A DNA stretch of 64,000 nt from a phage. The stretch lies in sequence record PZ445447.1, one strand, 5' to 3'. A program made the position numbers and the translations under genes. The notes under the pieces were generated by a model. The model searched no databases, had not been told where the DNA came from, and saw only the letters and a program-made list of their open reading frames with translations. Every line of letters starts with the position of its first letter. The first letter of the stretch is position 1. This document shows, piece after piece, positions 843 through 38,602 of the stretch.

Positions 843-869
843 GCCCTGCCCGAAAGGGTGGGGCTTTTT
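843..869 (+). terminator. rho-independent terminator hairpin
   Basis: GCCCTGCCC-GAAA-GGGTGGGGC stem-loop followed by TTTTT; identical copy at 11629-11656. Confidence 0.7.
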
Positions 870-887
870 GCATTAGGAGACAGCAAA

Positions 888-1652
888 TTGAAATTTATCT
901 ACAAAGAACACTACCACAAAGGTGTTGTGTGGAGCCTATTTGACGGATCTGGTGGTGCAGTCATTGACTGGGCAAAAGCTGGATATCTGTGCCTGTGCTT
1001 TAACGCAGAAGGTGCTGACCACGGCAGTTATGCAGAGGTGATCACCGATCATCCAAATATTCACTATGTAGATTATTGGATTGATCCATGGTTCCCTCAG
1101 GAAACTTTCTGCATGTACCCAGCTCCGGACTTTGTTCTTGCATTTCCTCCGTGCACCCACTTAGCGGTGTCAGGTGCTGCACACTTTAAGAAGAAGCTGG
1201 CTAAGGACCCGTTGATCCAGATTAATGCTGTAAAGGATGCTCGGGTTGCAGAAGAGTTGGGAGAGATTTACGATTGCCCGTGGCATGTAGAGAATCCTGT
1301 GGGTGTTATGTCCACACTGTGGCGCAAACCTGATTACCGTTTTCACCCTTCTGACTATGGCGGGTATTTACCGGAGGATGATGTAAACCCCTGGTTTCCT
1401 GAATTTATAGCTCCACGTGATGCCTATCCAAAAATAACTTGCGGCTGGATAGGTAATGGATTTATAATCCCGGCCACAAAACCTGTCCCGCAAATAGTTG
1501 ACGCGGTTAGCGGGTATTCCATGCAACACGCCAAGCTGGGTGGAAAGAGTGCAAGAACGAAGATGATCCGAAGCCTCACACCACGTGGCTGGGCAAAAGC
1601 CGTATTCTTAGCAAACGAGCCTGTAGTAAGGAGCAGAATTAATGGGAAGTAA
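888..1652 (+). CDS. putative DNA (cytosine-5)-methyltransferase-like protein
   Basis: Motifs LFDGSGG (motif I-like), PPCTHLAVSG (PC motif IV-like), VENPVG (ENV motif VI-like); start moved to in-frame TTG after AGGAGA RBS because the ORF-track start lies inside the terminator. Confidence 0.5.
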   Translation: MKFIYKEHYHKGVVWSLFDGSGGAVIDWAKAGYLCLCFNAEGADHGSYAEVITDHPNIHYVDYWIDPWFPQETFCMYPAPDFVLAFPPCTHLAVSGAAHFKKKLAKDPLIQINAVKDARVAEELGEIYDCPWHVENPVGVMSTLWRKPDYRFHPSDYGGYLPEDDVNPWFPEFIAPRDAYPKITCGWIGNGFIIPATKPVPQIVDAVSGYSMQHAKLGGKSARTKMIRSLTPRGWAKAVFLANEPVVRSRINGK

Positions 1653-3778: not shown

Positions 3779-6556
3779 ATGAGCATGTGGTCGTTCGATT
3801 TTGAGTCATCCGGTTTGCTGGAAGACCCAGATCTTTATTATCACTGCGGCCTGTTTAAAGAGCTGAATAAGAACCGTTTTATGCTGTTCCTTCCTCTGAA
3901 TGACCGCACACACTACTCCGAGGAGGATATAGAGAAGGCCAAGAACTTTATTCTGGCAAAGAAAACTCTTTATAAGGATTTTGAAGTTCGCATAGCAGAT
4001 TTTTCGGAGTTGGAAGGTTGGCTTACAGGAAATTCTGACTGGTCACCAACAGCTTTGAACTGCCATAACTGCTACAGTTATGACTTTATGCTGATGGAGA
4101 GATTATCCGGTATTCATTTTGATATGTTCCGTGATCCTAAATGCATGGGGACTATCAACGACCACCAGGTTAACCTGTTTGATACGTTGGCGATGAGCAG
4201 AATCTTGTGGCCTGATCGCCCTTTACCAAAAGGTTGTCCGGACTCTGTATTCAACCCGGTTACTAAGAAAATGCAGCCTGTTGGTCCTCACGGCCTTATG
4301 GCATGGGGCTACGCCCTTGGTAACCAGAAAGTTCAAATTGATGACTGGCGCGATCTTCCGTTGTGGAAGTATGTGGATCGTGTATTCGAGGACGTTATCA
4401 TCCAGGAGCTGCTCTGGAAAGAGCTGGTAGCGGAATCAAAAGGTGTATTCTACGGCAAATCTGACATGCAGAACTTTATGTACGATCCAGCCAAAGAGAA
4501 GCCGAAAGGGTTCAAGAAAATCACCTGGAAGAACGCATTACGCCGAGGCATGCTGCAGCACTTCCTGATGGAGCTGCAGGCCCGTCAGGGTGTGTATTTC
4601 GACATAGATGGGGCTATTGCTTTACGTGACCGTTGCGATGCGTGGATGAAAGAGATCGCTGATCGTGTTGAACCTCAACTTCCTTTAAAAGAGTTGTCAA
4701 TGTCTCAGCGACCCAAGTTCCCTGAAAAGCCGTTTAACCAAGATGGGACAATCTCCAATAATGGTTGGAAATGGTTAAAAGATAAGCTTGGCTATCCTGT
4801 AGACATGAGCGCTTTAGAATTCAAAGCCCCGCCTAAGCGAGCATTTACCTCCACAGGAGATGTCAGCAAGATGGGGATAAAATGGTGCGAAGAGATGGGC
4901 TGCAAAGACCCCGACAAGATGGCTGATTTCTTGAGAGGTTATATTAAGGGCACCTCCACACCACAACCTTTACCTAAAGAGCTGATGGATCAGGCAATAA
5001 GTGATCTGCAGCAGAAGCGAATGCCTGACTGCAAGATACCTATGAAAATCAGCAATCAGGACGACATTAAGCGATACCTGATCAGTGCTGGTTGGCTTCC
5101 GACAATGTGGAGAACTAAGGATGTAACTAAGGACAGCAAGAAGAAAGCTCTACCTGATGCAGATGTTGATGCACGAGTATATGCATACATGGACGAGCTT
5201 TTAGAGTCAGAGTATTGTGACCTAATTATCAACTTCTGGAACAAAACTGATGCTAAGTTTCAGACAACAGTGCACAAGTTCCGAAGCTTTCCTAACTCCG
5301 AAAGGATTAAAAAGGAAGTGTTCGGGAAAATACGCAGAAAAGCCAGGGCACTTATTACTTCTCCGCAACTGAAAGATACGTTTGGACACCTATGTCCGAA
5401 TCTTGAAAAATTGAACGGAGAGATGGCTAAAGATATCGTCTTGTGGTTATCATTGCGAAACCGCAGATCGGTCCTTGATCCAATCAAGGAGGATAAGGTT
5501 GATACTGGTCTTCTTAATCACCCACGTTTGAAGATTGACCATAAGCTTCCTGCTAAAAGCTCTGGATTAACAAACACTTCCCGACAGAAACACAGTATTT
5601 GTGCAAACATGCCTAAACCATCTCCTAAAGTGGTTATGGGTAAAGAGATGCGTAGCTTGTGGGGTGTTCCTCCTGGATATTTTGAGATCGGTATTGACGG
5701 GTCCAACTTAGAGCAGCTTATCGGGGCTTGGGGTGCCTTTGAGTTCGACAACGGCTTGTACTATGATGTTGTAAGTAACGGAGACGCACACCAAAACAAT
5801 GCTGAGGCATATACAAAAGTAGCAGGCAGAGAGGTGTCTCGTAACGACGGTAAACCTATCACGTATGGGGTTATGTACGGGGCACAAAAAGATAAAGTTG
5901 CAGATATGCTGGATATCTCCCCAGAGTTGGGGCAAAGGGTGATCGATGCACTTTGGGATGCCAACCCCGGTCTTAAGGGGCGCAAAGAGGATCTGGAGAA
6001 ATTCTGGGAAGCAACAGGTAAGAAGTTTATCTACTCTTTTGATGGTCATGCTATCTGGACCCGATCTAAACACTCTTTACTTAATGCATACCAACAAAAT
6101 GGTGGTGCATCGCTGTGTGACTTAGTTGGGATACTCATGCACCACCAAATGGTGAAGCGTGGGTGGTACGATGAAGGTGTCCGTCGTATTATTTATTACC
6201 ATGATGAGTACCAACTTCAGGTCCCTGACACACCTAAGTATAAGACTGTGTACACCTTCGACACAATTGAAGAATTGGAAGCATTTAAGGCAGAGCAGGA
6301 GGCCAAACTTCATGTGTTCGACGGTCATAAGTACAAAAAGGCACGCAAGGATGAAAACGGAAACGAAGTGGTTGACAGAGACGGAAACACGGTGTACGAT
6401 CCTATCCTGAACGATGACGGAAAGCTTGAACTTATCTGGAGCCCTGTGGGTGAAATGGTGGTGCATTGCTTCTGGCAAGCTTCTAAAATGATGGGCGTTC
6501 CATTCCAGATCACAGGTGAATACTTGTGCGGTCGTAACTGGGGTGATTGTCACTAA
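3779..6556 (+). CDS. DNA polymerase, family A (Pol I/T7-like) with 3'-5' exonuclease domain
   Basis: Exo I FDFES; motif A DGSNLEQL; motif B RNDGKPITYGVMYG; motif C YYHDEYQ; AAGGAGA RBS; 925 aa. Confidence 0.9.
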   Translation: MSMWSFDFESSGLLEDPDLYYHCGLFKELNKNRFMLFLPLNDRTHYSEEDIEKAKNFILAKKTLYKDFEVRIADFSELEGWLTGNSDWSPTALNCHNCYSYDFMLMERLSGIHFDMFRDPKCMGTINDHQVNLFDTLAMSRILWPDRPLPKGCPDSVFNPVTKKMQPVGPHGLMAWGYALGNQKVQIDDWRDLPLWKYVDRVFEDVIIQELLWKELVAESKGVFYGKSDMQNFMYDPAKEKPKGFKKITWKNALRRGMLQHFLMELQARQGVYFDIDGAIALRDRCDAWMKEIADRVEPQLPLKELSMSQRPKFPEKPFNQDGTISNNGWKWLKDKLGYPVDMSALEFKAPPKRAFTSTGDVSKMGIKWCEEMGCKDPDKMADFLRGYIKGTSTPQPLPKELMDQAISDLQQKRMPDCKIPMKISNQDDIKRYLISAGWLPTMWRTKDVTKDSKKKALPDADVDARVYAYMDELLESEYCDLIINFWNKTDAKFQTTVHKFRSFPNSERIKKEVFGKIRRKARALITSPQLKDTFGHLCPNLEKLNGEMAKDIVLWLSLRNRRSVLDPIKEDKVDTGLLNHPRLKIDHKLPAKSSGLTNTSRQKHSICANMPKPSPKVVMGKEMRSLWGVPPGYFEIGIDGSNLEQLIGAWGAFEFDNGLYYDVVSNGDAHQNNAEAYTKVAGREVSRNDGKPITYGVMYGAQKDKVADMLDISPELGQRVIDALWDANPGLKGRKEDLEKFWEATGKKFIYSFDGHAIWTRSKHSLLNAYQQNGGASLCDLVGILMHHQMVKRGWYDEGVRRIIYYHDEYQLQVPDTPKYKTVYTFDTIEELEAFKAEQEAKLHVFDGHKYKKARKDENGNEVVDRDGNTVYDPILNDDGKLELIWSPVGEMVVHCFWQASKMMGVPFQITGEYLCGRNWGDCH

Positions 6557-6605
6557 TGTAAACTATCAGCACAGGGAGGTGCTGTTGAGCAAAGAGGAGA
6601 CTTTT

Positions 6606-6890
6606 ATGGTAGTAGAGCCAACAAAAACATTTACATCCATGACCATTCCTGTTATTATGCAGGTGGAGTGTGTTCAGGTATCTCAAGTGTGGCCTGGCAC
6701 CAAAATCCCAACAGGGCCTGATTTCTTTCAGGTTGGGAAAGTGTACAATGTCTGGAAGGCACCAGATTGTTACCCTTTCATTAAAGATGACCGTGGGATG
6801 CTGTGGTATCTTGGAAATGACTTGACACTGCACCTTGGGAATGCTATTATTGCAGTATTCAGACTTAACAAGAAGGAGACCGATCAATGA
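6606..6890 (+). CDS. hypothetical protein
   Basis: ATG after AAAGAGGAG RBS, in frame within ORF 6516-6890. Confidence 0.6.
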   Translation: MVVEPTKTFTSMTIPVIMQVECVQVSQVWPGTKIPTGPDFFQVGKVYNVWKAPDCYPFIKDDRGMLWYLGNDLTLHLGNAIIAVFRLNKKETDQ

Positions 6891-7114
6891 CGACTTTGGT
6901 TAAAGCTACCTTTGTAGAAGAAAAGATGACAGACCTGTCATTCTTTAAAGAAGGAAAGACCTACGAGGTTTATTACGATAAAGCTCGTGCAAACAAAATG
7001 ATTAAAGACGAGGAAGGGGTTGCCTGGTATATCTCTCACCTGGCAAACGGTGAGTATCATATCTACGGAACCACTTTGCTTGCCAAGTTTGTAGTTGTTG
7101 AAGAGGACCTATGA
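6887..7114 (+). CDS. hypothetical protein
   Basis: ATGA stop/start overlap with upstream gene; AGGAGA RBS. Confidence 0.6.
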   Translation: MTTLVKATFVEEKMTDLSFFKEGKTYEVYYDKARANKMIKDEEGVAWYISHLANGEYHIYGTTLLAKFVVVEEDL

Positions 7115-7763: not shown

Positions 7764-8018
7764 ATGAAAATTACTCTGAAGCCAGAATGCGTTGAAAATG
7801 ACCGAGCTTTTAAAGATTGCACAATCGGTGCAATTTATGAAGCAGAGTTTTGTGAGAACCCTTTGGTAAAAGCCCTTCTGGAAGAAGGAGCTCCTCTATC
7901 ACAGGAAGAGCTTGATGAGTTGGAAAACTCAGCACAGTGCCTTACCTTTAAAGATGATGAAGGAGACTCTGTCTGGTGCACTGTTAATGAAGTAGTTTTT
8001 GTAAAACCTGAACATTAA
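7764..8018 (+). CDS. hypothetical protein, paralog of 8082-8354
   Basis: AAGGAGA RBS; shares AF(K/R)DCT and KDD(E/Q)GD..(W/C)CT motifs with the next gene. Confidence 0.65.
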   Translation: MKITLKPECVENDRAFKDCTIGAIYEAEFCENPLVKALLEEGAPLSQEELDELENSAQCLTFKDDEGDSVWCTVNEVVFVKPEH

Positions 8019-8021
8019 TGC

Positions 8022-8050
8022 TTGACAACAGTCATAGGGCCTACTATAAT
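8022..8050 (+). promoter_or_regulatory. sigma70-type promoter
   Basis: TTGACA, 17 nt spacer, TATAAT; spacer and -10 lie within an inverted repeat ATAGGGCC...GGCCCTAT. Confidence 0.7.
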
Positions 8051-8081
8051 GGCCCTATCAAAACGGAAGGGGACCACAGCA

Positions 8082-8354
8082 ATGACCAAACAATATCAAC
8101 GAATTAAAGCCAAGGTTAAGCCAGACTATCTGGAGAAGGACTCTGCTTTTCGGGACTGCACAGCTGACAAAGTTTACACAGGGGCCGTCCTGTTGAACGA
8201 TGAACTTGAAGTAGATATTCTGGGTAAAGAGGCCACTATTAAGGACGACCAAGGCGATTATGTTTGCTGCACCACACGTGAGCTAGAAATCTTAGAATAC
8301 TTCGGTGAAATCTTCACCTCTCTTGATGATTACTTAGATGATGAGGAAGCGTGA
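8082..8354 (+). CDS. hypothetical protein, paralog of 7764-8018
   Basis: ATG downstream of promoter at 8022; in frame with ORF 8022-8354. Confidence 0.6.
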   Translation: MTKQYQRIKAKVKPDYLEKDSAFRDCTADKVYTGAVLLNDELEVDILGKEATIKDDQGDYVCCTTRELEILEYFGEIFTSLDDYLDDEEA

Positions 8355-26341: not shown

Positions 26342-26761
26342 ATGAACATTAAATCTAATAATCCGGCATATAGCTTTGATAACGCTTTTTGTCACGGTCC
26401 GGCGGCGAAAGGATTCGAAATCGATGGTAAACTAATTATTGTCAATGTTGACGGGGAAGAGGTTGCAGTATATCCGGTGGCAGACGTTAAAAGCCGTCTA
26501 CAATGCCGCATGGATGTTACCGCCTATCAGCTTGATCCGGTCCGCATAGTTGCCCTGGTCCTGGAAGAAGAAATTAAAGCCATGCACCATAGCAACAGAT
26601 TTATTGGTGACGCGCAGGATAATATGAAAGTATGCCGCCATAAAGTTAATGAAGTGCTTAAAGAGTACGGCTATAAAGATCTTATGATCAAACGCGAGGA
26701 AAAATTCCGCTACCGTAACGACCTGGCAAATCGGATTTTTGAAATATACGAATCATTATAA
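26342..26761 (+). CDS. hypothetical protein
   Basis: AAGAGGTAAAAACACCATG; 139 aa; last plus-strand gene before the convergent hub. Confidence 0.6.
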   Translation: MNIKSNNPAYSFDNAFCHGPAAKGFEIDGKLIIVNVDGEEVAVYPVADVKSRLQCRMDVTAYQLDPVRIVALVLEEEIKAMHHSNRFIGDAQDNMKVCRHKVNEVLKEYGYKDLMIKREEKFRYRNDLANRIFEIYESL

Positions 26762-26780
26762 TTTTTTAACTGAATTATCA

Positions 26781-26805
26781 AGGGGCTTAGGCCCCTTTCT
26801 TTTTG
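26781..26805 (+). terminator. rho-independent terminator
   Basis: AGGGGC-TTAG-GCCCCT then TTCTTTTTG. Confidence 0.7.
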
Positions 26806-26806
26806 T

Positions 26807-29273
26807 CTGCTCTTCCCCCTACCATAAACGGCCCTACCTGGCAAGTGGAATAATTGACGAGCCATCAATCCCACACACTGTACAAACATACATATAAAAT
26901 AACTATTGCATAATTTTTCATTGTGTGGTAGCAGGGCCATTTTTACACGTTTTTCCTTCCAAAATTGCACGTAATGCAGCATTTGCACAAAATTTAACCT
27001 GATGCATATATTCAATAGCTTGTCAACAACTAAAAATCTTTATAAGTCATACACTTACATAACTACAAAAGCGTTTTCTACGTGAAAAATCGAGTATAAC
27101 TATAGCCGCCAGATCTCAGAATTTACGTACGCTCGCCATTCTATAGCCTGCTAAGCATTTATTCCAACCATAGAATAACGGAATAGTCAATACCTGCATA
27201 AAATAATTATTCGTGTAAACTGCATAACATAAATCGGCCCAGGTGTCAACATTTTTCGTAAACAGTCTGGAATTGTCACGTTAGGTTACCATAAGCAGAG
27301 AAATCTTCAGTCGTCTAATGTTTACTGTACGTTACTATATTAACTGAAATCATTAGATGACTAATAGAAAGATAAGAAATAATTAACAATACAATTATTT
27401 TATCTGTAACAATAAGGCAACTATGCAAACGAATGGCATGGCGCGACGGAGTCGCGACATAATATAAAAGCAGTAACCATCACCCCCGTGATAGTTTGTC
27501 TGCAAACTATTAATCAGATCATAGTTGCCTTGTATTTAGTTAATCATGACATAACAAGCAAGGCAACTATAGATCTGCTAATAGTTGCCCTGCTTTTATA
27601 TTATGTCATGCTAATTATAATCAGTGCGATTATTGTCATGTATAATTATTGTCATGCAAACGAATGGCATGGCTGATTATCGGTGTGTAAACAGTCAATC
27701 ATGTAAATGGTTAGCATGTGAACAATCAGGAATGTAAACAATCCAGTGTGTAAACTAATAGGTGTGTAAAAGTGTCATGTTGTGTCAGTTAGGTCACATT
27801 ATGTCAGACAAGTTTTTCTCCTCTTTGTCAAGTGCTGCATGAAAAATTTACAAGCTTGTATGGTAGCATTTTTGCGGCCCTGTTTACATTCAGGAGTGTA
27901 TGTATAATCCTTGGTGTGTGGGCGTTTAGACGTCTGGACGGTAAGAAGTCTGCAGGTTAATATCTAATCTATCGGCTGCTAACTATATCCCACACAAATA
28001 GTAAGAAATATAATTGTTATGTGCGTAAACAGTAACCCATGTTATCAATCCCTGTATGTATCGCCAGTGGTGCGCATAATGGGTATTATGTTAAATTGCC
28101 CGTAATGATAAAGGTTCTCACAATGATAGGTATTCTCATTCACCCTCACAAAATAGATTGCAAATGTTGTGCCACTGTGTGAACGGCCTCACCTATTAAT
28201 TTGCCTCACTGCCTCGATATTTGAGAATTATTATAAGAATGAGAAGTATTCCCATTTCGTCCGCCTGGCAGCACTCCAGTCGCTACGGCTCATGACAGGG
28301 CAGCACTCCTGTAGGTCAGGTCAAAATCGTGGTAGAATTGGGCCTGTTCAGATATTTCTGGCTGACTCTTCAGGTCTGTGTGGGAAAAGCCAACCTCTCC
28401 GGCGGGGCAGGGGGTCATGACGGGAAAATTGCAGGTCAATTAAAAAATTTACGTGGTGTATGAAGCGCTCTTCAGGTAAGGCAGGTATTAGAGGATGAAA
28501 CCCTCTTCAGGCAATGATATTTGTGGGTGTGATATTTGCTGGAAAGCCAGATATGACGGGACTCCCGGCGGGGATGGGGTAGTACAGACAGGGAAAATAT
28601 GGGGATGTAGTTGGGTAAATTGATCAGGCAGGTAGAGTATGGATTATGTTACAGGTATGTTAAATATGGAGGTTGAATATCTGTAAGATTTGTGTGTAAA
28701 ATCAAAGACTTAAGTGGTGTTGTGGTATTTTCTATAAATAATTCAAGTTTAATAGGTAATATTTGTCTCTATCCACTTTGTGTGGTAAACAGATTCAGAT
28801 GAAATTGGTTTACAAGTGTATACATAATATACAAATTAAAGATACAAGAAACCCCCCTCCCCTTCGGCTACCATTCACCTTTTCCTCTGACTGGTACTTA
28901 AACACTTATTCAGACTCTTCAGGTTATCACCCATATATCATATGGCAGTGACTGGTGTCCTCCGGCCCCTCTTTCGTCACCCGTCCGCTTCGCCATGCTA
29001 ATGCCATAGCCAATGGTTCGGTTGTTCACCCTGTTCACTCAGGTGTATCTCCATACCCCTTCAAACCGAAGAGAACAGAAAACCCGAATTACTCGGTAAA
29101 AGAAAAGAGAAGAACTTAATTTTATCAAGATAGGCAAGAATGTCAAGGCATGACTGCTCACTAAACAAGCAAACAGTCATGTGTGGGAGGTAAGTGATTG
29201 TGGTTGTAGGAAATTTAGTTGAAAGATGTGTTATAGGTGCTTCCAGCACTTTAGCCGGGTAGCTAATTGTGTG
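26807..29273. other. large non-coding, repeat-rich region between convergent gene blocks (candidate origin, packaging or regulatory hub)
   Basis: No ORF with credible RBS; AT-rich; inverted repeats around 27425-27610 (ATAGTTGCC in alternating orientation); five TGTAAA(C) repeats 27680-27770; CTCTTCAGG four times 28366-28930. Confidence 0.5.
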
Positions 29274-29489
29274 TCAGTCCAGCGGTTCATCCTCTACTTC
29301 ACTGAAATCAATGTTCATGGTCTCTTCCCAACCATCGATCTCAGCACAAGAGTGGAGTTCTTTAGGGTTTACTCCCAAAGCCTCAGCAACAGAGTCTATA
29401 TTTAACACCTCTGGCAGGTATGATTCATCGAATTCAAGGTAAATCAGGCCACGAGTGTTGTCAGCTCCACCAAATATCTCTATCTTCAT
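29274..29489 (-). CDS. hypothetical small acidic protein
   Basis: GAGGAG RBS; starts MKIEIFGG like several array members; 71 aa. Confidence 0.55.
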   Translation of the reverse strand: MKIEIFGGADNTRGLIYLEFDESYLPEVLNIDSVAEALGVNPKELHSCAEIDGWEETMNIDFSEVEDEPLD

Positions 29490-30185: not shown

Positions 30186-30485
30186 CTATACCCATGAGGG
30201 CTTATCAAGGTTGGAGTAGCTGAAAGGTGTCAAAAGGTGACTGTCAAAATCTCTCAAACTATCCAAATCTTTTTCCTCGTCCTGACACCATCTGTGCCTA
30301 CATTTATTGTTGTAGTGCATAGAATGCATAGCGTTCTGCAACTTAACAGGTACAAGTGATTCAGGAGTAGATAGTATTGTTGGGTATGCCAGAATCACCT
30401 CAAACAGTGGAAACACATCGAAACTAAAGTCTACCTCTGCAGAGGTTGATGGCATATAGGAGTATTTAGCCGCCTTTGTAGACAT
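30186..30485 (-). CDS. hypothetical protein
   Basis: ATG after GAGGTGG RBS. Confidence 0.55.
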   Translation of the reverse strand: MSTKAAKYSYMPSTSAEVDFSFDVFPLFEVILAYPTILSTPESLVPVKLQNAMHSMHYNNKCRHRWCQDEEKDLDSLRDFDSHLLTPFSYSNLDKPSWV

Positions 30486-31889: not shown

Positions 31890-31973
31890 TTACTGAAATA
31901 CAAGACACAGTGTTAAGGTTACTGACCAGCAAATAATTAGCAGGACCATTGCAACCTTGGCAAGATTTATCAT
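31890..31973 (-). CDS. hypothetical small hydrophobic peptide (27 aa)
   Basis: ATGA overlap with upstream stop; AGAGG upstream. Confidence 0.3.
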   Translation of the reverse strand: MINLAKVAMVLLIICWSVTLTLCLVFQ

Positions 31974-32257
31974 AGTGCCTCTAAGATTTCATATCCTTCA
32001 GGTCGAAATACAAGCCACTCCGTGGCTCCGTTTGGTCGATACGCTTTATACAGAACAACCTGGTCTCGGCACATGCACATGGCTACATAGTTTTCATCCA
32101 CACCTGCAGCCTGCATTGCATCTTCTTCTCCGGCAACTGCTTTGCTTACAACTTCCTTGGTAGGCAGGTGTGCGATCAGCTCGTCACCATCATTAATTCC
32201 AAAATGGCTGAGTTCGCCGTTGGTATCTTTAATCTTAATCTTAACCAGATCTTTCAT
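31970..32257 (-). CDS. small acidic protein, paralog array member
   Basis: GGGGGAAG RBS; C-terminal ...PEGYEILEAL. Confidence 0.6.
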   Translation of the reverse strand: MKDLVKIKIKDTNGELSHFGINDGDELIAHLPTKEVVSKAVAGEEDAMQAAGVDENYVAMCMCRDQVVLYKAYRPNGATEWLVFRPEGYEILEAL

Positions 32258-32586
32258 TAGTCTTCCCCCAGGTTCAAAGGTCCTAAGATTTCATATGCCA
32301 GATTAGAAGTTACAAGAGGGTCTTCTGCGTCTTTAGTATTATACCACCCGTGAATAACCAGAGTCCCACTTTGTTTCATGTCCAACTGGAACTCTTCTGC
32401 CGTTTCCTCATCCAGCTCCAAGATTTCCATAAGGTATTTGATGTTAGGGAGGTATGCAGCTGTTACAGTCCCCTCTACCAGACCTTCAGGCCAACCTACA
32501 TCTGGATGACAAGTAGGAACCAGGTTGGTCAGCTTAATGGTGTACGCTTTTTCTGCACGAGCCTTCAGTAACGGGTCAATCTTCAT
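32257..32586 (-). CDS. small acidic protein, paralog array member
   Basis: GAGGAGGA RBS; ends ...YEILGPL. Confidence 0.6.
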   Translation of the reverse strand: MKIDPLLKARAEKAYTIKLTNLVPTCHPDVGWPEGLVEGTVTAAYLPNIKYLMEILELDEETAEEFQLDMKQSGTLVIHGWYNTKDAEDPLVTSNLAYEILGPLNLGED

Positions 32587-32936
32587 TATTCGTCCTCCTC
32601 TTCGGTACCTGCTTCCAGTAATAAGTTAAGAATATCTTCTGCACAAGGTTCATAGAACTCTTGGCCTTCATTATCGATGATTTTGTAGTCATCTCCACGA
32701 ATAATCAGGGGATCACTCTCAAAATTATCGAGACCTTTAACAACGACAACACGATCGATTGCCATCATTGTAAGAACTTTATCGACATCTTCCTCTGCTA
32801 CACCATACTGCAGCAGAATGTCTTTGGTAGGAGGAACAGCATCCACCACAACGCCGTTACCAAAACCTTCTGGAAGTTTAGCTAAAATATCTTCCGGAAC
32901 CACATTCACATCAAAACCGGTAATTTCTACTTTCAT
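32586..32936 (-). CDS. small acidic protein, paralog array member
   Basis: Starts MKVEITGFDV; acidic C-terminus. Confidence 0.6.
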   Translation of the reverse strand: MKVEITGFDVNVVPEDILAKLPEGFGNGVVVDAVPPTKDILLQYGVAEEDVDKVLTMMAIDRVVVVKGLDNFESDPLIIRGDDYKIIDNEGQEFYEPCAEDILNLLLEAGTEEEDE

Positions 32937-33197
32937 TTACAGCACCTCTTCGTCAACTACTTCATAAAAATGGCCTGGGATTGCAATAGCGTTCTCACCT
33001 TCACCTACAAACACAGTTCCGTCAAGAATCAACATCATAAGAATTTCTGTAATATCCTCTTCCGGAACATTGCCAAAACCTTTAATCAGCTCGTAGGTTG
33101 GAATATTTACCTCTAAGATGTCACCATCTTTAGAACGGAAATCAACACCGTCCTGAATCTCTGCCGTTTCAAGGTTTTTCAATTTAATCTTCATCAA
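32937..33197 (-). CDS. small acidic protein, paralog array member (family C)
   Basis: Minus-strand promoter TTGACA, 17 nt spacer, AATAAT upstream; ends ...HFYEVVDEEVL, similar to 34361-34630. Confidence 0.6.
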   Translation of the reverse strand: MMKIKLKNLETAEIQDGVDFRSKDGDILEVNIPTYELIKGFGNVPEEDITEILMMLILDGTVFVGEGENAIAIPGHFYEVVDEEVL

Positions 33198-33273
33198 TCG
33201 GTCCCCTGTCTTGTTAAGATGAAGGTATTATTTCACACAGGGTTGGCGTTGTCAACACCTGTGTGCAAGAAAA

Positions 33274-33669
33274 TTACTGAAACAGTGCGGATAAATTACC
33301 TTCTGGTGGGAACTTATCTGCCAAAAACGGTGTTAGCACAGTAGCCTTCTGAAGATCTGGGGTCCACTCGTTGTTCAGAACATCCCAGTAGTACGCAATG
33401 TTGCTGTGTGGGTGCCGCATTACGAACTTTTTCCCTTCGTAGTCATCTGAAACCTCTACAGAAGAAATAACAACAGAATCTTCAAGGGTTTCTTCATAGA
33501 AGGATCCACCTTCAAATTTCCAACGAGATGCAAGAGCCCCTGCCTTGAACGCTGCAGATAACGGACTGTCGGCAAGAACATACATTTCTTGCACTCTGTC
33601 GCTGCGATCTTTGCTTCTTACGTTGTATACAGTATCTGAGCTATACTTAACACGGTATAGGCTTACCAT
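33274..33669 (-). CDS. hypothetical protein, paralog of 35481-35879 (family B)
   Basis: GAGGAGG RBS; shared VMRHPHSNIAYYWDVLNNEWTPD versus VIVHPDSRVKHYWNARTKTWTPF. Confidence 0.6.
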   Translation of the reverse strand: MVSLYRVKYSSDTVYNVRSKDRSDRVQEMYVLADSPLSAAFKAGALASRWKFEGGSFYEETLEDSVVISSVEVSDDYEGKKFVMRHPHSNIAYYWDVLNNEWTPDLQKATVLTPFLADKFPPEGNLSALFQ

Positions 33670-34001
33670 TACCGCACCTCCTCAATAACTTCCACATCTG
33701 AACCTACCACAAATGCAAAAGGACAGGTTTCATGAAAGATATCCGGATCGCCGCCAAGCTTGCTAACAATTTCTCCACCACTAATAAACACAAGCTCACC
33801 GATATTCATCAGATTGCTGAAATAGTACCCATAATGATTAAAGAATGCAGCAGGGTCAGGTAGACTAGTAGCCTCAAGCACTACATCGGTTGAGGTTACT
33901 TTCTTATCATAACCTCTCGCCTTTTGAGATGCAAGATCTGCAGAATCCTCAGGCGACCGGAGATGCACAGGAATTGTTTCACCAATAAAGCGTACTTTCA
34001 T
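33669..34001 (-). CDS. small protein, paralog array member (family A)
   Basis: ATG (MKVRFIGE) in frame with ORF 33669-34028; ends ...DVEVIEEVR. Confidence 0.55.
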   Translation of the reverse strand: MKVRFIGETIPVHLRSPEDSADLASQKARGYDKKVTSTDVVLEATSLPDPAAFFNHYGYYFSNLMNIGELVFISGGEIVSKLGGDPDIFHETCPFAFVVGSDVEVIEEVR

Positions 34002-34005
34002 ATTA

Positions 34006-34269
34006 TCACCCAACAACCATAGCTTCAAAAGGAGTCATGAACGAATAAACGGCATCATCATCTGCTTCAGGGAATGCTCCCAAAGACTTCATATCTGAGC
34101 CCTTGACAAATACAAGGTTTTGATCAAAGGCTTCTTGGGGGTCAATCCGATACATATTTCGTAAAATATCGCTTACCTCCTCATCAAGAGGTGAGTATGC
34201 TGTGCACGTTTTTCCGATCAAGCTTTGAGAATCAGGGTATCCACCTGAAGTTTTAAAATAAACAATCAT
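34006..34269 (-). CDS. small protein, paralog array member (family A)
   Basis: GAGGTGA RBS; 87 aa. Confidence 0.6.
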   Translation of the reverse strand: MIVYFKTSGGYPDSQSLIGKTCTAYSPLDEEVSDILRNMYRIDPQEAFDQNLVFVKGSDMKSLGAFPEADDDAVYSFMTPFEAMVVG

Positions 34270-34360
34270 ATAGTATCACCTCTGGTAAGAGATTGGGACT
34301 CCTTTCCCACAAATAATTACAAATCTTCCTTAGCGAGGAAGTATGCTAATCCAAGCAGGA

Positions 34361-34630
34361 TTATTCCTCTACAATCTCATACACATCAGGAGTTACAATC
34401 AACTCTTCTCCGTTACCCGGTGCAACAAACACCACCAAACCTTCAGGTGTGTGCTTTTTAGCCATCTCGATAACATCTTCTCGCAGAGCTGGCTCCATAA
34501 GATCAAAACCTTCACCTAGGGCATCACGAACCACCTTCATATAGTCCACTGGTTGTGCTTCAACAATCATGCCTTCAACCAGTCCACAATTTTTGTCTGC
34601 CAGCTCAGTTTGGAATAATTTAATTTTCAT
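34361..34630 (-). CDS. small acidic protein, paralog array member (family C)
   Basis: GAGGAG RBS; ends ...DVYEIVEE. Confidence 0.6.
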   Translation of the reverse strand: MKIKLFQTELADKNCGLVEGMIVEAQPVDYMKVVRDALGEGFDLMEPALREDVIEMAKKHTPEGLVVFVAPGNGEELIVTPDVYEIVEE

Positions 34631-34656
34631 TTAGAGGTCTCCTCAATTATTTGATA

Positions 34657-34758
34657 TTAATAGCCGTAACCTAACACATTAACTACAACTGCGATTGCAA
34701 ACATAATTTCAAAGCATGCAATCTCTACATTTGGGACTAATTTCTTAATCACACCCAT
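34657..34758 (-). CDS. hypothetical small hydrophobic peptide (33 aa)
   Basis: GAGGTG RBS then ATG; not in ORF track. Confidence 0.3.
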   Translation of the reverse strand: MGVIKKLVPNVEIACFEIMFAIAVVVNVLGYGY

Positions 34759-34767
34759 TGTAGCACC

Positions 34768-35088
34768 TCATTCTCCAAAGTCAATCTTTACTTTGCCTTT
34801 CCCCTTACCTTTCTTTCCACCGCATTTAGCCAGCTGACGTGCTGCAACATCTACCATACGGTCAGTTGCCTCGTAAGCATCACTGCCTTTAGCCTTGGCA
34901 ATAACTTCTTTTCCAGAATTGTCAAAAATGAACGCCATAACTTCCTGGTGATCATTTTCAACTTTTACACTCACACGTGCATAGTTAACAGAGGGATGTA
35001 AACGCTCCAGCTTGGACATTTTGCGGGAAATAAAAGATACCATACCTTCTGTGATTTCTACATTGTTGCCAGTGATTTCAATCTGCAT
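34768..35088 (-). CDS. hpf: ribosome hibernation promoting factor / RaiA (YfiA) family protein
   Basis: MQIEITGNNVEITEG...KVENDHQEV...GSDAYEATDRMVDVAARQLAK lines up with E. coli HPF as I recall it (MQLNITGNNVEITEA...KVEKV...GQDMYAAIDGLIDKLARQLTK); own minus-strand promoter. Confidence 0.85.
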   Translation of the reverse strand: MQIEITGNNVEITEGMVSFISRKMSKLERLHPSVNYARVSVKVENDHQEVMAFIFDNSGKEVIAKAKGSDAYEATDRMVDVAARQLAKCGGKKGKGKGKVKIDFGE

Positions 35089-35137
35089 AACGTGTTCCTT
35101 TTAAGGAAGAGGGAATAACTATCTCTCTTTGAAAACA

Positions 35138-35166
35138 ATGATACTAAATCTGAAGCGTTGTGTCAA
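35138..35166 (-). promoter_or_regulatory. sigma70-type promoter for hpf (minus strand)
   Basis: Minus-strand TTGACA, 17 nt spacer, TATCAT. Confidence 0.6.
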
Positions 35167-35172
35167 CAGTTT

Positions 35173-35463
35173 TTACAGCTTGTTGTCGATAGTTTTTAAA
35201 ATATCCACAGCAAGATCTGCCATTTTTCGAACATACTCTGCAAACTCAACAGGATCCTTGATCAAAGAATTCACAGGGTCGTACCCTAGAGCGTTTAAAA
35301 TGGCTGCAGCATCTACAACCTTCTCATCATTTGCGAAGATCTCTCCGTCAAACTTGTAGGTCCATTTTGAGTCAACCTTAGCAGAGCAGGGTTTGTCCAT
35401 GCTTGTTACACCATCGTCTTTAAACTCTCCTGCGTTATCAATATTTAGAATTAAATCCATCAT
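35173..35463 (-). CDS. hypothetical protein
   Basis: GAGGTG RBS; 96 aa. Confidence 0.6.
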   Translation of the reverse strand: MMDLILNIDNAGEFKDDGVTSMDKPCSAKVDSKWTYKFDGEIFANDEKVVDAAAILNALGYDPVNSLIKDPVEFAEYVRKMADLAVDILKTIDNKL

Positions 35464-35480
35464 GGTGACACCTCACTGTT

Positions 35481-35879
35481 TCAGTTTAGCTTTTCTTCAA
35501 CAACCCCATAACTTGGGGCAGAGTCAAGAGCTTTCTGGTTTAAAAGTGGCGTAGCAGAATCTGCAAACGGTGTCCAAGTTTTTGTTCTGGCATTCCAGTA
35601 ATGCTTCACTCTGGAATCTGGATGCACTATAACAAAAACTTTTTCACTTGTCAACACATTAATTTCTTCTACACCCTTGCTGATAATTTCTCCGTCATAG
35701 CCCCCAGTCTGGTATCCTTCGTACCAGGTTCTTGCATAGGCATAGCCAGCCTGCCAGCATGCAGCCTCCTCCGAGGTGGAGACTACGTAGAAGTCTTTCT
35801 CAAATTCTGGAATACGCCCTTGCTTTACGCTCCAAGCCCCGCGAATTTTCATTGTAACTTTAAACAGTTTATTTTTCAC
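35481..35879 (-). CDS. hypothetical protein, paralog of 33274-33669 (family B)
   Basis: 132 aa; HP..YW..TW/TP motif shared. Confidence 0.6.
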   Translation of the reverse strand: MKNKLFKVTMKIRGAWSVKQGRIPEFEKDFYVVSTSEEAACWQAGYAYARTWYEGYQTGGYDGEIISKGVEEINVLTSEKVFVIVHPDSRVKHYWNARTKTWTPFADSATPLLNQKALDSAPSYGVVEEKLN

Positions 35880-35891
35880 AACGGTTACCCA

Positions 35892-36146
35892 TCACAGCTC
35901 TACAATATCTGCATCTGACCCTACCCCAAAGGCATAGTAGGACTCTTCCCCGAAATAATATTCAGGTGCACCAGCGGTGATCAGGTCTGATCCCAAGATA
36001 AACACCACGTTGTGGCCTACATAACTGTGATGTTGCCGCACAGGATCATCCCACGGCAACCCTTCAAAGTATACCGCAGGAACGACCTTTCCATTCAGGA
36101 AGGATTGTCCCAAGTAGACGTTAGAATCAAGAATTTTAACCTTCAT
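35892..36146 (-). CDS. small protein, paralog array member (family A, MKVK-LDS type)
   Basis: GGAGGA RBS; starts MKVKILDSNVYLGQ. Confidence 0.65.
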   Translation of the reverse strand: MKVKILDSNVYLGQSFLNGKVVPAVYFEGLPWDDPVRQHHSYVGHNVVFILGSDLITAGAPEYYFGEESYYAFGVGSDADIVEL

Positions 36147-36360
36147 GATCGTCCTCCACTACCTCTACATCCTCACCTAGGGCAAAGTTATAGGTCCACT
36201 GACTGTCAAAGCATTCCTGAGATGCACCAGCGGCAATAAGATCTGCTCCTTTTATTTTTAAAAGGTCAGGGTAATCTTCGTTATGGACAGCAGTAAACAC
36301 TTTTCCTACTAAAGGCTCCTGACCAATATAGAAGCTTGAATCTAAAACTTTAACTTTCAT
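36136..36360 (-). CDS. small protein, paralog array member (family A)
   Basis: GGAGA RBS; starts MKVKVLDSSFYIGQ; ends ...DVEVVEDD. Confidence 0.65.
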   Translation of the reverse strand: MKVKVLDSSFYIGQEPLVGKVFTAVHNEDYPDLLKIKGADLIAAGASQECFDSQWTYNFALGEDVEVVEDDHEG

Positions 36361-36641
36361 CAACGGTCTCCATCAGGTGGTTGTGGGACGTAAACACTGT
36401 TACGAATATCGTCAGCAGTGTAGTAATAAGTGGTTCCAACCCTGTCTCGGGCTGCAATGTACTCTGCTATACCAATAAGTGCCATTGATTTGGTGGCGTA
36501 TCTTCCCCACTCGTTAGCTCCCCAGTAGAATTTAGACCAGTAAGGAATAAGACCGAACAAATATACCTTTTGACGAACTTCCCAGTAAGTGCCTTTTCCG
36601 ACAAGTTTAAACTCGACTTCACTACTGTTAATCTTTTTCAT
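36360..36641 (-). CDS. hypothetical protein
   Basis: GAGGGAG RBS; W/Y-rich. Confidence 0.55.
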   Translation of the reverse strand: MKKINSSEVEFKLVGKGTYWEVRQKVYLFGLIPYWSKFYWGANEWGRYATKSMALIGIAEYIAARDRVGTTYYYTADDIRNSVYVPQPPDGDR

Positions 36642-36728
36642 TATCAATCTCCCTCTACCGTGGTAGGATTGTCAGTAAGAAATTGAGCATTGGCTGGAGG
36701 CACGTTTTTACATATTTAACAAACATCG

Positions 36729-36914
36729 TCACCCCTCATCGCACGTCTGATATAGCCACTCTATAAAATCTTGATACCATTCGCCCTCTGAGCGCTCCGT
36801 AGGCCAATAATCTTCACCCTCTCGTGCATTAAAATCTGAGTATTCAACTTTCCACTCCTTTACCAGCTCGTGGAGAAGGTTTTCAGCCTGCTCTAAAGAT
36901 TTATTTTTTACCAT
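36729..36914 (-). CDS. hypothetical small acidic protein
   Basis: AAGGAGA RBS; 61 aa. Confidence 0.5.
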   Translation of the reverse strand: MVKNKSLEQAENLLHELVKEWKVEYSDFNAREGEDYWPTERSEGEWYQDFIEWLYQTCDEG

Positions 36915-36997
36915 TGCTGTCTCCTTTTTCAAGATAGTTATACATCAGAACTGCACCACCTAAGATGGCTACCAGTAACAATACCCCAGATAGCATC

Positions 36998-37150
36998 TCA
37001 ATAAACATGGCTTGAAACACTGGAAGGCCTCCCTAAATTAACGCACCATTTTAAATACATGCTCTTTTCCCATAAAGGTGCCTGGCTAAGATCTGCGTAG
37101 AACGCAATCTCTTTAAGAACAGTATAAACAGTTTTAGGTGCGGTCTCCAT
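36998..37150 (-). CDS. hypothetical small protein (51 aa)
   Basis: AAGGAGGG RBS 6 nt before ATG; in frame with ORF 36998-37195. Confidence 0.35.
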   Translation of the reverse strand: METAPKTVYTVLKEIAFYADLSQAPLWEKSMYLKWCVNLGRPSSVSSHVY

Positions 37151-37370
37151 CCCTACCCTCCTTTTTCTCCTTACGGATATTCTTGTAGTAATCAACCAGG
37201 CACATTATCACGATGAAGATAACAACAGGCCAAAAAGGTGCAGCAGTGATGATGGTGATAAAATCATCAAACTTCACCCTTCGTCTGGACACGATGCATA
37301 CACCTGTCAAGAATACCGCTGTTATAACGGACATTACCAGGTAACCTATTAGCACAACATTTATACTCAT
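37134..37370 (-). CDS. hypothetical membrane protein (two TM helices, charged C-terminal tail; holin-like topology)
   Basis: GGGAGGA RBS; 78 aa. Confidence 0.55.
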   Translation of the reverse strand: MSINVVLIGYLVMSVITAVFLTGVCIVSRRRVKFDDFITIITAAPFWPVVIFIVIMCLVDYYKNIRKEKKEGRDGDRT

Positions 37371-37400
37371 TGGTCCTCCCTTTGTAGGTTAAACTGTATA

Positions 37401-37925
37401 CTACAAATGGCAACTGAGGGTGTCAAGAAAATTATCCCGTTCTTTCTCAGAGTTTTCATGGGTGTAGCTGAAAAACATATCGAGAATAACCTTATTGATA
37501 TATTCCAGCTCCTCTGTGTTCAGATGCTTAGCAGGATCTACAATGACATCCCAAATATCATACAGACCACACTCATGATACCCATAACGCCACTCAATTG
37601 TCAAGCTGAGCGGCAAATCTTTACCGTCACAAACAACCTTCCATCTACATATGTTGGTATCTGGTCGTATCTGTGCACGGTACACCTGTACAAAATCCAA
37701 TTTGAATTTGAGGTACTCGTCATACAATTTAAGCACAAAGCTCTCGATTTGTGGAGACACTTTTGCAGCAAACTGTGCGTATTTGTACTTGCACTGGATG
37801 ATCTTTCTGCGTTTTGCAGTTAAATTTTTTGCCGCCAGTTGTTCTTCAGTGTATCTCCACCTACGATCAACAAACGCAACAGGGTCTTTGTCCCCATAGA
37901 GGTCTTCCCAGTTAATCAGAAGCAT
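37401..37925 (-). CDS. hypothetical protein
   Basis: GGAGGAG RBS; 174 aa. Confidence 0.6.
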   Translation of the reverse strand: MLLINWEDLYGDKDPVAFVDRRWRYTEEQLAAKNLTAKRRKIIQCKYKYAQFAAKVSPQIESFVLKLYDEYLKFKLDFVQVYRAQIRPDTNICRWKVVCDGKDLPLSLTIEWRYGYHECGLYDIWDVIVDPAKHLNTEELEYINKVILDMFFSYTHENSEKERDNFLDTLSCHL

Positions 37926-37930
37926 ACCTG

Positions 37931-38164
37931 TCACTCCTCCACAACTTCAAGGCCTTTACCGCCTCGCTCTGGCAGATTACTTAAAGATAGGTAATACATA
38001 TAATCAGGAGAGATCCTGCCAGACTCTGCACCTGCAGCTAGTAAATCCTTCCCTTTAACCAGGACAACATTCTCGTTTGCAGATAGCCGTTTTGCTTCCA
38101 CAATTTTACCAACACAGTCAACCAAGGAAGGGTACCCTAAATCTGTAAGAAATTTAACTTTCAT
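37931..38164 (-). CDS. small protein, paralog array member (family A)
   Basis: AGGAGG RBS; starts MKVKFLTDLGYPSLVD; ends ...GLEVVEE. Confidence 0.65.
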   Translation of the reverse strand: MKVKFLTDLGYPSLVDCVGKIVEAKRLSANENVVLVKGKDLLAAGAESGRISPDYMYYLSLSNLPERGGKGLEVVEE

Positions 38165-38203
38165 GCTACCTCCTGCTTCTACCGTCCCCGGTAAGATAAA
38201 TTA

Positions 38204-38602
38204 TTACTGAACAGAGCGCGGAGCTGGGAAGGATAACTCTTCTAAAGAGAAGATTTCATTCCCCACAATCCATGTTGCAGGATCATCTGGGTTGACTGGA
38301 TAGATAATCATCACCTCGTCAGTGTTACATACCCGCTTTTTACCTGTGGAGTCATCAGCAACCAGCATGCGCGGTTCTTCAGAAATGCACAGGTAGCCTC
38401 CTCGGCCCACTGTTCCTTCCACAGGATCTTGTCCTTTGATCACGATGATTATCTTCTCTCCTGAGGTGATATTACCTTGCACACTCACCGTTTGACCAAC
38501 TTTAGATGTGCCGAACTTGGTGGTTTCAAACATTAAATCTCGAATTACTGTTGCATAGTCTCCAGACACTTTCTTACCTTCTTTAGTGATCTCAATCTTC
38601 AT
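38204..38602 (-). CDS. hypothetical protein
   Basis: 132 aa; starts MKIEITKEG. Confidence 0.55.
   Translation of the reverse strand: MKIEITKEGKKVSGDYATVIRDLMFETTKFGTSKVGQTVSVQGNITSGEKIIIVIKGQDPVEGTVGRGGYLCISEEPRMLVADDSTGKKRVCNTDEVMIIYPVNPDDPATWIVGNEIFSLEELSFPAPRSVQ

Follow-up and report, generated by a model that had tools for sequence, protein, structure and literature searches.

Accessory blocks of small host-interaction genes are a well-known kind of feature in phages. The hyperplastic regions of T4-like phages, the morons of lambdoid phages, and the anti-defence islands all hold small genes of unknown function, which the phage can spare on a laboratory host and needs on particular strains. 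The locus described here is similar in these respects: it is an array of twelve paralogous genes for small, mostly acidic proteins, in three families (A, B, and C), together with a gene for a ribosome hibernation factor (HPF), on the minus strand at positions 31970-38164 of a 64,000-nucleotide stretch of phage DNA (record PZ445447.1; "the window" in what follows). Like such clusters, the array adjoins a validated anti-defence gene, and members of it are exchanged among unrelated phages. The window is 100% identical to MZ501093.1 (Escherichia phage MaxBurger, Bas54), an rV5-like Vequintavirus (record position 97924 is window position 31900), where the array CDS, bas54_0146 to 0167, carry the GenBank label 'hypothetical protein'. 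Our analysis indicates that families A and C probably form one superfamily, its ten genes deriving from one small SH3-like ancestor. For the array as a whole the best explanation, which we hold with roughly even confidence, is that of host-specific accessory binding proteins, possibly serving counter-defence, in a stably inherited Vequintavirus block. This block is old and is part of the Vequintavirus non-structural transcription unit.

Twelve paralogous genes in three families

The twelve family open reading frames (ORFs) correspond to CDS bas54_0146-0153, 0157-0159, and 0166. Transcription runs from g19 through g18 (A), g17, g16, g15, g14, g13 (A), g12 (A), g11 (B), and g10 to HPF, and continues with s154, g08 (C), g07 (A), g06 (A), g05 (B), and the four family C genes g04-g03-g02-g01; an A-A-B cassette is thereby present twice (g13-g12-g11 and g07-g06-g05). 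The five genes of family A are g18 (bas54_0166, 37931-38164, 77 amino acids, pI 5.4), g13 (bas54_0159, 36136-36360, 74 amino acids, pI 4.2), g12 (bas54_0158, 35892-36146, 84 amino acids, overlapping g13 by 11 nt), g07 (bas54_0152, 34006-34269, 87 amino acids, with an insert between strands 2 and 3 of the fold discussed below), and g06 (bas54_0151, 33669-34001, 110 amino acids, with long inserts). Family B is represented by g11 (bas54_0157, 35481-35879, 132 amino acids, 123 in the GenBank call) and by g05 (bas54_0150, 33274-33669, 131 amino acids), which closes the g07-g06-g05 unit. Family C comprises g08 (bas54_0153, 34361-34630, 89 amino acids), g04 (bas54_0149, 32937-33194, 85 amino acids), g03 (bas54_0148, 32586-32936, 116 amino acids, pI 4.05, with an acidic C-terminal tail), g02 (bas54_0147, 32257-32586, 109 amino acids), and g01 (bas54_0146, 31970-32257, 95 amino acids). 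The proteins are acidic, as had been noticed from the sequence alone: the pI ranges from 4.05 to 5.4 (4.05-4.7 for most members) and the net charge is strongly negative, with the exception of g11 (pI 7.8).

All 171 pairs of 19 array proteins were scored by Smith-Waterman alignment against 300 shuffles. The 14 top-scoring pairs all fall inside the three families first proposed, and 10 survive Bonferroni correction, so the similarities are significant. The strongest pairs are g12-g13 (shuffle P 4e-15), g05-g11 (3e-9), g13-g18 (1e-8), g03-g04 (1e-5), and g06-g12 (1e-5), followed by g01-g03 (1e-4) and g07-g18 (2e-4); g04-g08 (4e-4) falls narrowly short of the Bonferroni limit, and the best pairwise value of g02 is 2e-3. 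A phmmer search against the 399 ORFs of the window returned the same relationships, with E-values of 6e-12 for g12-g13, 1e-9 to 3.5e-10 for g05-g11, 3e-5 for g13-g18, 1.5e-4 for g03-g04, and 5e-4 for g06-g12. Hidden Markov models (HMMs) were also built with one member left out and searched against all 399 ORFs. Every omitted family A or C gene was then the top match outside the training set, at 5e-8 to 4e-24 for family A (g07 5e-8, g18 3e-14), g06 being at 2e-7, and at 2e-8 (g03), 1e-7 (g04), 3e-5 (g01), 9.5e-4 (g02), and 1e-3 (g08) for family C, and the best non-family ORF never fell below E 0.1. By these sequence comparisons g02 and g08 are the weakest-supported members, g02 the weakest of all. 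The paralogs are 22-47% identical, the highest value being that of the g12-g13 alignment (47%). Assignments to the PHROGs agree with the grouping: phrog_5009 is matched by g12 (4e-32), g13 (1e-38), g18 (8e-36), and weakly by g07 (1e-4), and phrog_7379 by g05 (5e-66) and g11 (4e-74); g06 is assigned its own PHROG, separate from phrog_5009.

The original prediction had counted 12 or more genes, with g03, g02, and g01 (at 32586, 32257, and 31970) as only probable members of family C. Shuffle tests, leave-one-out HMMs, and PHROGs together uphold that grouping: the family genes number exactly 12, and all three doubtful members are recovered by the leave-one-out HMMs. Neither the family HMMs nor hhalign comparison of neighbours revealed a thirteenth member of A, B, or C in the 64 kb window, and 16 neighbouring proteins (including bas54_0140, family B, and HPF) compared by hhalign with the A and C profiles added no members. 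Two more tandem pairs of small paralogs lie elsewhere in the window, downstream of the DNA polymerase on the plus strand (6516-7114 and 7764-8354; phmmer 2e-5 and 2e-9). One of these pairs at 6.5-8.4 kb, acidic and starting with MKITLK..., is reminiscent of the array; the family HMMs do not detect it.

A predicted SH3-like barrel common to families A and C

AlphaFold2 models were built with the family alignments for one family A protein (g13) and one family C protein (g04). The g13 model has a predicted local distance difference test score (pLDDT) of 89.8 and a predicted template modelling score (pTM) of 0.78, and consists of five strands and a short helix; the g04 model (pLDDT 87.7, pTM 0.75) repeats these five strands and adds two helices between the second and the third. 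By structure comparison both predicted structures are SH3-like five-stranded barrels with the SH3 strand order, which agrees with the shared fold for which structure prediction had been proposed as a check. An N-terminal MKVK/MKIK motif is conserved across the two families, and both models place residues 2-5 in the first strand of the barrel. The helices of family C coincide exactly in position with the inserts that g06 and g07 bear in family A. The signature of family A reads MKVKLL..GGY.G...VGKVV.A ... G.DLI.AGA ... Y.F..G.E.EVVEE, and Cys and His are absent from its family-wide conserved positions.

For comparison by hhalign, remote relatives and the orthologues of a divergent phage were added to the A and C profiles. 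The enriched profiles align over their full length and in the register predicted by the models, with a local probability of 59% (P 9e-5) and a global P of 6e-5. Controls stayed well away from these values: the reversed profile gave P 0.14-0.26, 40 column shuffles at least 0.087, and 16 real neighbours at least 0.013. It follows from the enriched alignment and its controls that the ten genes of A and C probably constitute one superfamily, in which case the three families collapse to two lineages. The two families might instead be non-homologous, having converged on a common small barrel while their termini were shaped by composition and translational coupling. The SH3-like barrel is indeed a very common fold, the HMMs of each family miss the other, shallow profiles reached only P 0.005-0.03 in hhalign, and the C-terminal Glu codons serve as Shine-Dalgarno (SD) sequences too. 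Convergence is nevertheless somewhat unlikely in our view, given a full-length, register-consistent match at P about 1e-4 that lies well beyond every control, independent models that agree in strand order, and helices in family C that match the insert site of g06 and g07.

Searches against libraries of known families gave little. HPF excepted, none of the array proteins has a Pfam match at E <= 0.1 or any match in an NCBIfam scan; 10 family members scanned with the PADLOC models gave no match, and sequence searches of the PDB with the profiles of A, B, and C matched no entry.

Host-specific phenotypes in transposon sequencing

Bas54, this same phage, was the subject of saturated transposon sequencing in a 2025 preprint (10.1101/2025.11.20.689424). 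On K-12 all array genes are non-essential (Extended Data Table 8) except g06, g07, and g08, which are classed as 'intermediate'; g05 was hit at 25/25 TA sites and is non-essential. The comparison of hosts is between K-12 and one clinical isolate, the uropathogenic CFE311, on which insertions in g05, g06, and g07 drop to zero relative to K-12, with log2 fold changes of -6.77, -6.17, and -7.16, respectively (q~0 each). Insertions in g11 undergo a four-fold drop (log2 fold change -2.14, q~0), the value for g08 (-2.78) is not significant, the remaining array genes are neutral on CFE311, and HPF is neutral on both hosts (10.1101/2025.11.20.689424). The transposon carries no terminator, the authors argue against widespread polarity, and on CFE311 insertions upstream of g07 (in s154) or of g11 (in g12 and g13) are neutral (10.1101/2025.11.20.689424); a terminator-free transposon and neutral upstream insertions argue against simple polarity as the cause of the phenotypes.

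The preprint leaves the array genes unmentioned and follows up bas54_0063 and bas54_0140, which counter a predicted defence system, DS-28 (10.1101/2025.11.20.689424). The latter gene (window 30186-30485, 99 amino acids) was validated there as needed against the DS-28 of CFE311, with a MoxR ATPase encoded elsewhere (10.1101/2025.11.20.689424). It lies 1.5 kb downstream of the array; its product is unrelated to A and C by hhalign, and matches neither the HMMs of A, B, and C nor NCBIfam. In supplementary file 9 of the preprint the sheet 'resampling_K-12_vs_CFE303' has a command line and numbers identical to those of the CFE311 sheet (10.1101/2025.11.20.689424).

Age and stability of the block

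The array is syntenic in Murica, rV5, AlexBoehm, and Aya, and every array gene has a dN/dS of 0.03-0.3 within Vequintavirus, indicating purifying selection. In L012, a metagenomic relative of only 28-80% identity, the order is unchanged and none of the five A genes, the five C genes, g05, or HPF is missing. The same content and order at this distance imply that the duplications are ancient and the repertoire stable. The original prediction had spoken of rapidly duplicating genes and proposed to look for copy-number variation in related phages; rapid duplication does not agree with the unchanged order and content in so divergent a relative, paralogs only 22-47% identical, and purifying selection, although losses and replacements do occur. 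We therefore rejected recent or rapid duplication, the array being syntenic across Vequintavirus and the divergent relative, and likewise the possibility of junk ORFs, dN/dS being well below 1.

Some variation is found. L012 has an unrelated 96-amino-acid ORF in place of g11, and an extra gene (Pfam PF27050, Phage_P22_Y8K6) between g05 and g04, at the position of the rV5 promoter P150; the corresponding sites (L012 7692-7982 and 10092-10388) appear to be hot spots of gene replacement. EduardKellenberger (Bas59, L011, MZ501061.1) bears a natural deletion that takes out g11-g16, including the family A genes g12 and g13, and fuses what is left of g17 ('putative glycosidase'), its N-terminal portion, with the 33 C-terminal residues of g11 (L011 5635-6102). 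In rV5 g01 is frameshifted (ORF153/154), g04 has a divergent allele of 52% identity, and a protein from metagenomes (P0014) is a g13/g12 chimera. A further protein, P0088 (98 amino acids, on a 657-bp European Nucleotide Archive contig), combines an unrelated N-terminal part (PF24132) with the C-terminal 53 residues of g02; it arose by natural recombination or else is a chimera made in assembly. MaxBurger itself is without a 1.75 kb six-gene block that most rV5-like phages carry between g14 and g15 (window 36641-36729; the block is L002 7744-9599) and that includes a homologue of rV5 gp133. Eighteen records labelled 'Campylobacter phage' (MG0656xx, host C. jejuni) also came up, with ~97-98% identity over the array among the five listed; these seem to be coliphages, mislabelled or present as contaminants.

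Relatives in other phages and prophages

A word-indexed search of 5.8 billion proteins yielded 37 clusters for family A, 53 for family C, and 6 for family B, nearly all of them on rV5-like contigs of 120-140 kb. When the family A profile was run in an exhaustive HMMER search, 40 representatives came up at E <= 1e-3, of which ~30 are distant, full-length small proteins missed by the word-indexed search. Among 35 family A relatives, 34 match phrog_5009 and 19 match phrog_13367, and none has a Pfam match at E <= 0.01. Outside the Vequintavirus block family A occurs as a lone gene: between the Q antiterminator and the holin in common E. coli lambdoid prophages (where the member P0031 is closest to g18 among the window paralogs), between dam and gp38 in the T4-like phage Phi1, and in a T1-like Klebsiella phage. 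These lone genes sit among small hypothetical genes, without HPF, and the genes flanking the prophage member have nothing further in common with the array. A tblastn search of phage genomes with the remote family A member P0113 gave no match. Far from the array, at window 858-1652 on the plus strand, a gene for a 264-amino-acid protein has a homologue (phmmer 1e-86) at L003 2709-3503, L003 being the E. coli lambdoid prophage that bears a family A gene, a sign that rV5-like phages and lambdoid prophages may exchange genes.

Other genes of the array and expression signals

The presence of HPF in the array, also noticed at the outset, is confirmed by a match of g09 (34768-35088, 106 amino acids, HPF/RaiA-like) to PF02482 at E 4e-15 and 56.7 bits (gathering cut-off 23.7). 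It stands outside families A, B, and C, as does g10 (35173-35463), a small acidic protein unrelated to A and C (hhalign against their profiles P at least 0.013). Unrelated genes, g14-g17 (36360-37925), lie between the family A members, and s154 is a 33-codon ORF between HPF and g08. All are on the minus strand.

An SD-like sequence precedes 17 of the 20 real starts checked, in line with the claim that most genes have their own ribosome-binding site; g06 is without a clear SD. At five junctions the SD is built from the acidic C-terminal codons (VVEE, IEE, EEE; GAGGAG) of the preceding gene, namely at the ends of g03, g04, g06, g13, and g18 (e.g. 32936-32960, 33669-33690, 36146-36170, and 37925-37950). 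This double use probably contributes to the acidic ...VVEE ends that the proteins share. Two intergenic near-consensus sigma70-like promoters were found on the minus strand, one upstream of HPF (35138-35166, TTGACA-17-TATCAT, at the position of rV5 promoter P144) and one upstream of g04-g01 (33227-33255, TTGACA-17-AATAAT with an extended -10, at the position of rV5 P150). The consensus scan gave a further candidate on the same strand for s154-g08-g07-g06-g05, at the end of HPF (34757-34784, TTGACT-16-TACAAT, TG); the g08-g07 spacer has no clear promoter. Several genes had been said to have promoters of their own; the two intergenic sites coincide with promoters annotated in rV5, but the total in the region, 28 promoter-like sites, does not exceed the shuffle expectation of 21 +/- 4.7.

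On the other side of bas54_0140, window 26761-29274 is ~2.5 kb of gene-free DNA between divergent transcription units, in which Tandem Repeats Finder found no tandem repeats. A separate preprint places the physical genome terminus of Bas54 (terminal-repeat region) there, at record 92785-95298, ~2.7 kb from the array end, and according to another preprint the segment tolerates no transposon insertions.

Possible functions of the array

If the array consists of host-specific accessory binding proteins, the products of the A and C genes, predicted single-domain SH3-like five-stranded barrels of 74-116 residues, mostly acidic, would be non-enzymatic and would most probably act by stoichiometric binding: each paralog would bind a host macromolecule and neutralise or redirect it, and different paralogs would matter in different hosts. 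The A-A-B unit g07-g06-g05 is required on CFE311, where g11, the B paralog, contributes as well; the barrier to be overcome there is probably one specific to the strain, for instance a defence system. Expression would be early, from host-type promoters. Three observations together suggest a defence system as the target: the phenotype is host-specific, an anti-defence gene lies nearby, and family A is distributed in the manner of morons. Several points weigh against this explanation. Binding partners and homologues of known function are both lacking, and eight of the ten A and C genes have no phenotype in either host tested. The factor in CFE311 may be something other than a defence system. The phenotype itself comes from transposon insertions and from a supplementary table that the preprint leaves undiscussed (10.1101/2025.11.20.689424). 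Because g06 is without a clear SD, the phenotypes of g07 and g06 could be due in part to lost translational coupling, and the 'intermediate' class of g06-g08 even on K-12 hints at a general fitness role. The suggestion of a host-takeover or anti-defence repertoire is plausible for some members, in view of the nearby bas54_0140 and of the host-specific need for g05, g06, g07, and g11, which is how genes for host range or counter-defence should behave. The stronger idea of an undescribed system finds no such backing: nothing shows the twelve genes acting as one, and HPF is merely embedded among them, its disruption being neutral in both hosts.

The main rival is a general takeover role, in which KOW-like or ribosomal-protein-like barrels bind ribosomes, RNA polymerase, or RNA, and act beside HPF on the translation or transcription machinery of every host. 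We consider it unlikely: there is no KOW or ribosomal-protein Pfam match, HPF can be disrupted without effect in both hosts, most members are wholly dispensable on K-12, the strong phenotype is host-specific, and other phages carry family A alone, without HPF. Acidity and position are the points in favour of DNA mimics that counter restriction or nucleases in the manner of Ocr, ArdA, or Arn, their acidic surfaces titrating restriction or RecBCD-type enzymes; most members have a pI of 4.05-4.7 and a strongly negative net charge, and the accessory region lies beside a validated anti-defence gene. Ocr, ArdA, and Arn are also small, strongly acidic, phage accessory proteins; they differ in fold and have no sequence relationship to the array proteins, and none of their Pfam families is matched. 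Structure prediction, which had been proposed as a check on DNA mimicry, instead gave SH3-like barrels for A and C, with SH3-like barrels as structural neighbours, and to our knowledge this is not the fold of any DNA mimic. Moreover, g11, which has a CFE311 phenotype, has a pI of 7.8, and part of the C-terminal acidity is explained by the GAG/GAA codons that form the SD of the next gene, which together make DNA mimicry very improbable. Least credible of all is that the proteins are packaged in the virion and injected with the DNA like the internal proteins of T4, with the MK(V/I)K N-terminus as capsid-targeting signal. The conservation of that N-terminus across A and C would fit, since the internal proteins of the T4 type, small factors against restriction, also have a conserved N-terminus (10.1101/2025.11.20.689424). 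In both models, however, these residues are strand 1 of the barrel and not a detachable leader, and the genes are in a non-structural unit with sigma70-type promoters. The rV5 genome paper places them in that unit, without mention of the paralogs (PMC3606486). Its virion mass spectrometry, a shallow survey, detected gp52, 53, 60, 61, 64, and 133 alone and no member of the array families, which argues against packaging and against virion structural proteins, an identity that had been considered for the array at the outset (PMC3606486). Although gp133 is among the predominant proteins of that survey (PMC3606486), MaxBurger is without its homologue, so gp133 evidently is dispensable for a viable phage. 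Another Vequintavirus 'proteomics' study (PMC10698182) holds no virion mass spectrometry data of use.

The explanation by host-specific accessory binding proteins can be made more specific, though this we put forward tentatively and regard as rather doubtful. Families A and C would be a repertoire of diversified SH3-like binders, each with its own target in host immunity or housekeeping, and the A-A-B cassette a three-protein counter-defence module, of which g07-g06-g05 would disarm the CFE311 barrier. If so, the family A genes of T4-like and T1-like phages and of lambdoid prophages would represent a widespread, unrecognised anti-defence class.

Comparison with known systems

The searchable literature on Vequintavirus paralogs and early-gene transcription does not describe these families. 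The reduction of the 12 genes to two lineages, the SH3-like fold, the wider distribution of family A, and the link to an unremarked transposon-sequencing phenotype thus appear to be unreported. For most genes of large lytic phages no function is known. In the array, twelve such genes fall into two lineages, the fold of one of which is predicted with confidence; a strong host-specific phenotype of four of them (g05, g06, g07, and g11) had stood unremarked in public data. A function found here would annotate family A, now without a Pfam entry or a solved structure, across T4-like and T1-like phages and E. coli prophages. Since therapy and biocontrol cocktails make use of rV5-like phages, determinants of their host range also are of practical value.

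Among described protein families, the nearest fold class for the A and C models is that of the small SH3-like barrels: the SH3 domains, the KOW domains of Spt5/NusG, and PsaE. The array proteins match none of their sequence models, stand alone with a signature of their own, and in family C add a two-helix insert. The PHROGs that array members match (phrog_5009 and phrog_13367 for family A, phrog_7379 for family B) are all three labelled 'unknown function'; g06, g07, and all five family C genes are placed in separate singleton-like PHROGs, by which the paralogy within the array and the link between A and C are missed.

Gene-amplification 'accordions', of which poxvirus K3L and the amplification of the T4 tifA/dmd region are examples, likewise consist of tandem copies of small host-interaction genes, and the g13/g12 recombinant shows that unequal crossing-over takes place here too. 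Accordions are recent and unstable, whereas the array has fixed copies, 22-47% identical, each of them conserved and subject to purifying selection. A similar difference separates the array from the accessory and counter-defence clusters that it otherwise resembles: those are shuffled collections of unrelated morons, whereas the array consists mainly of ancient paralogs of one fold, with content and order that are stable across the genus.

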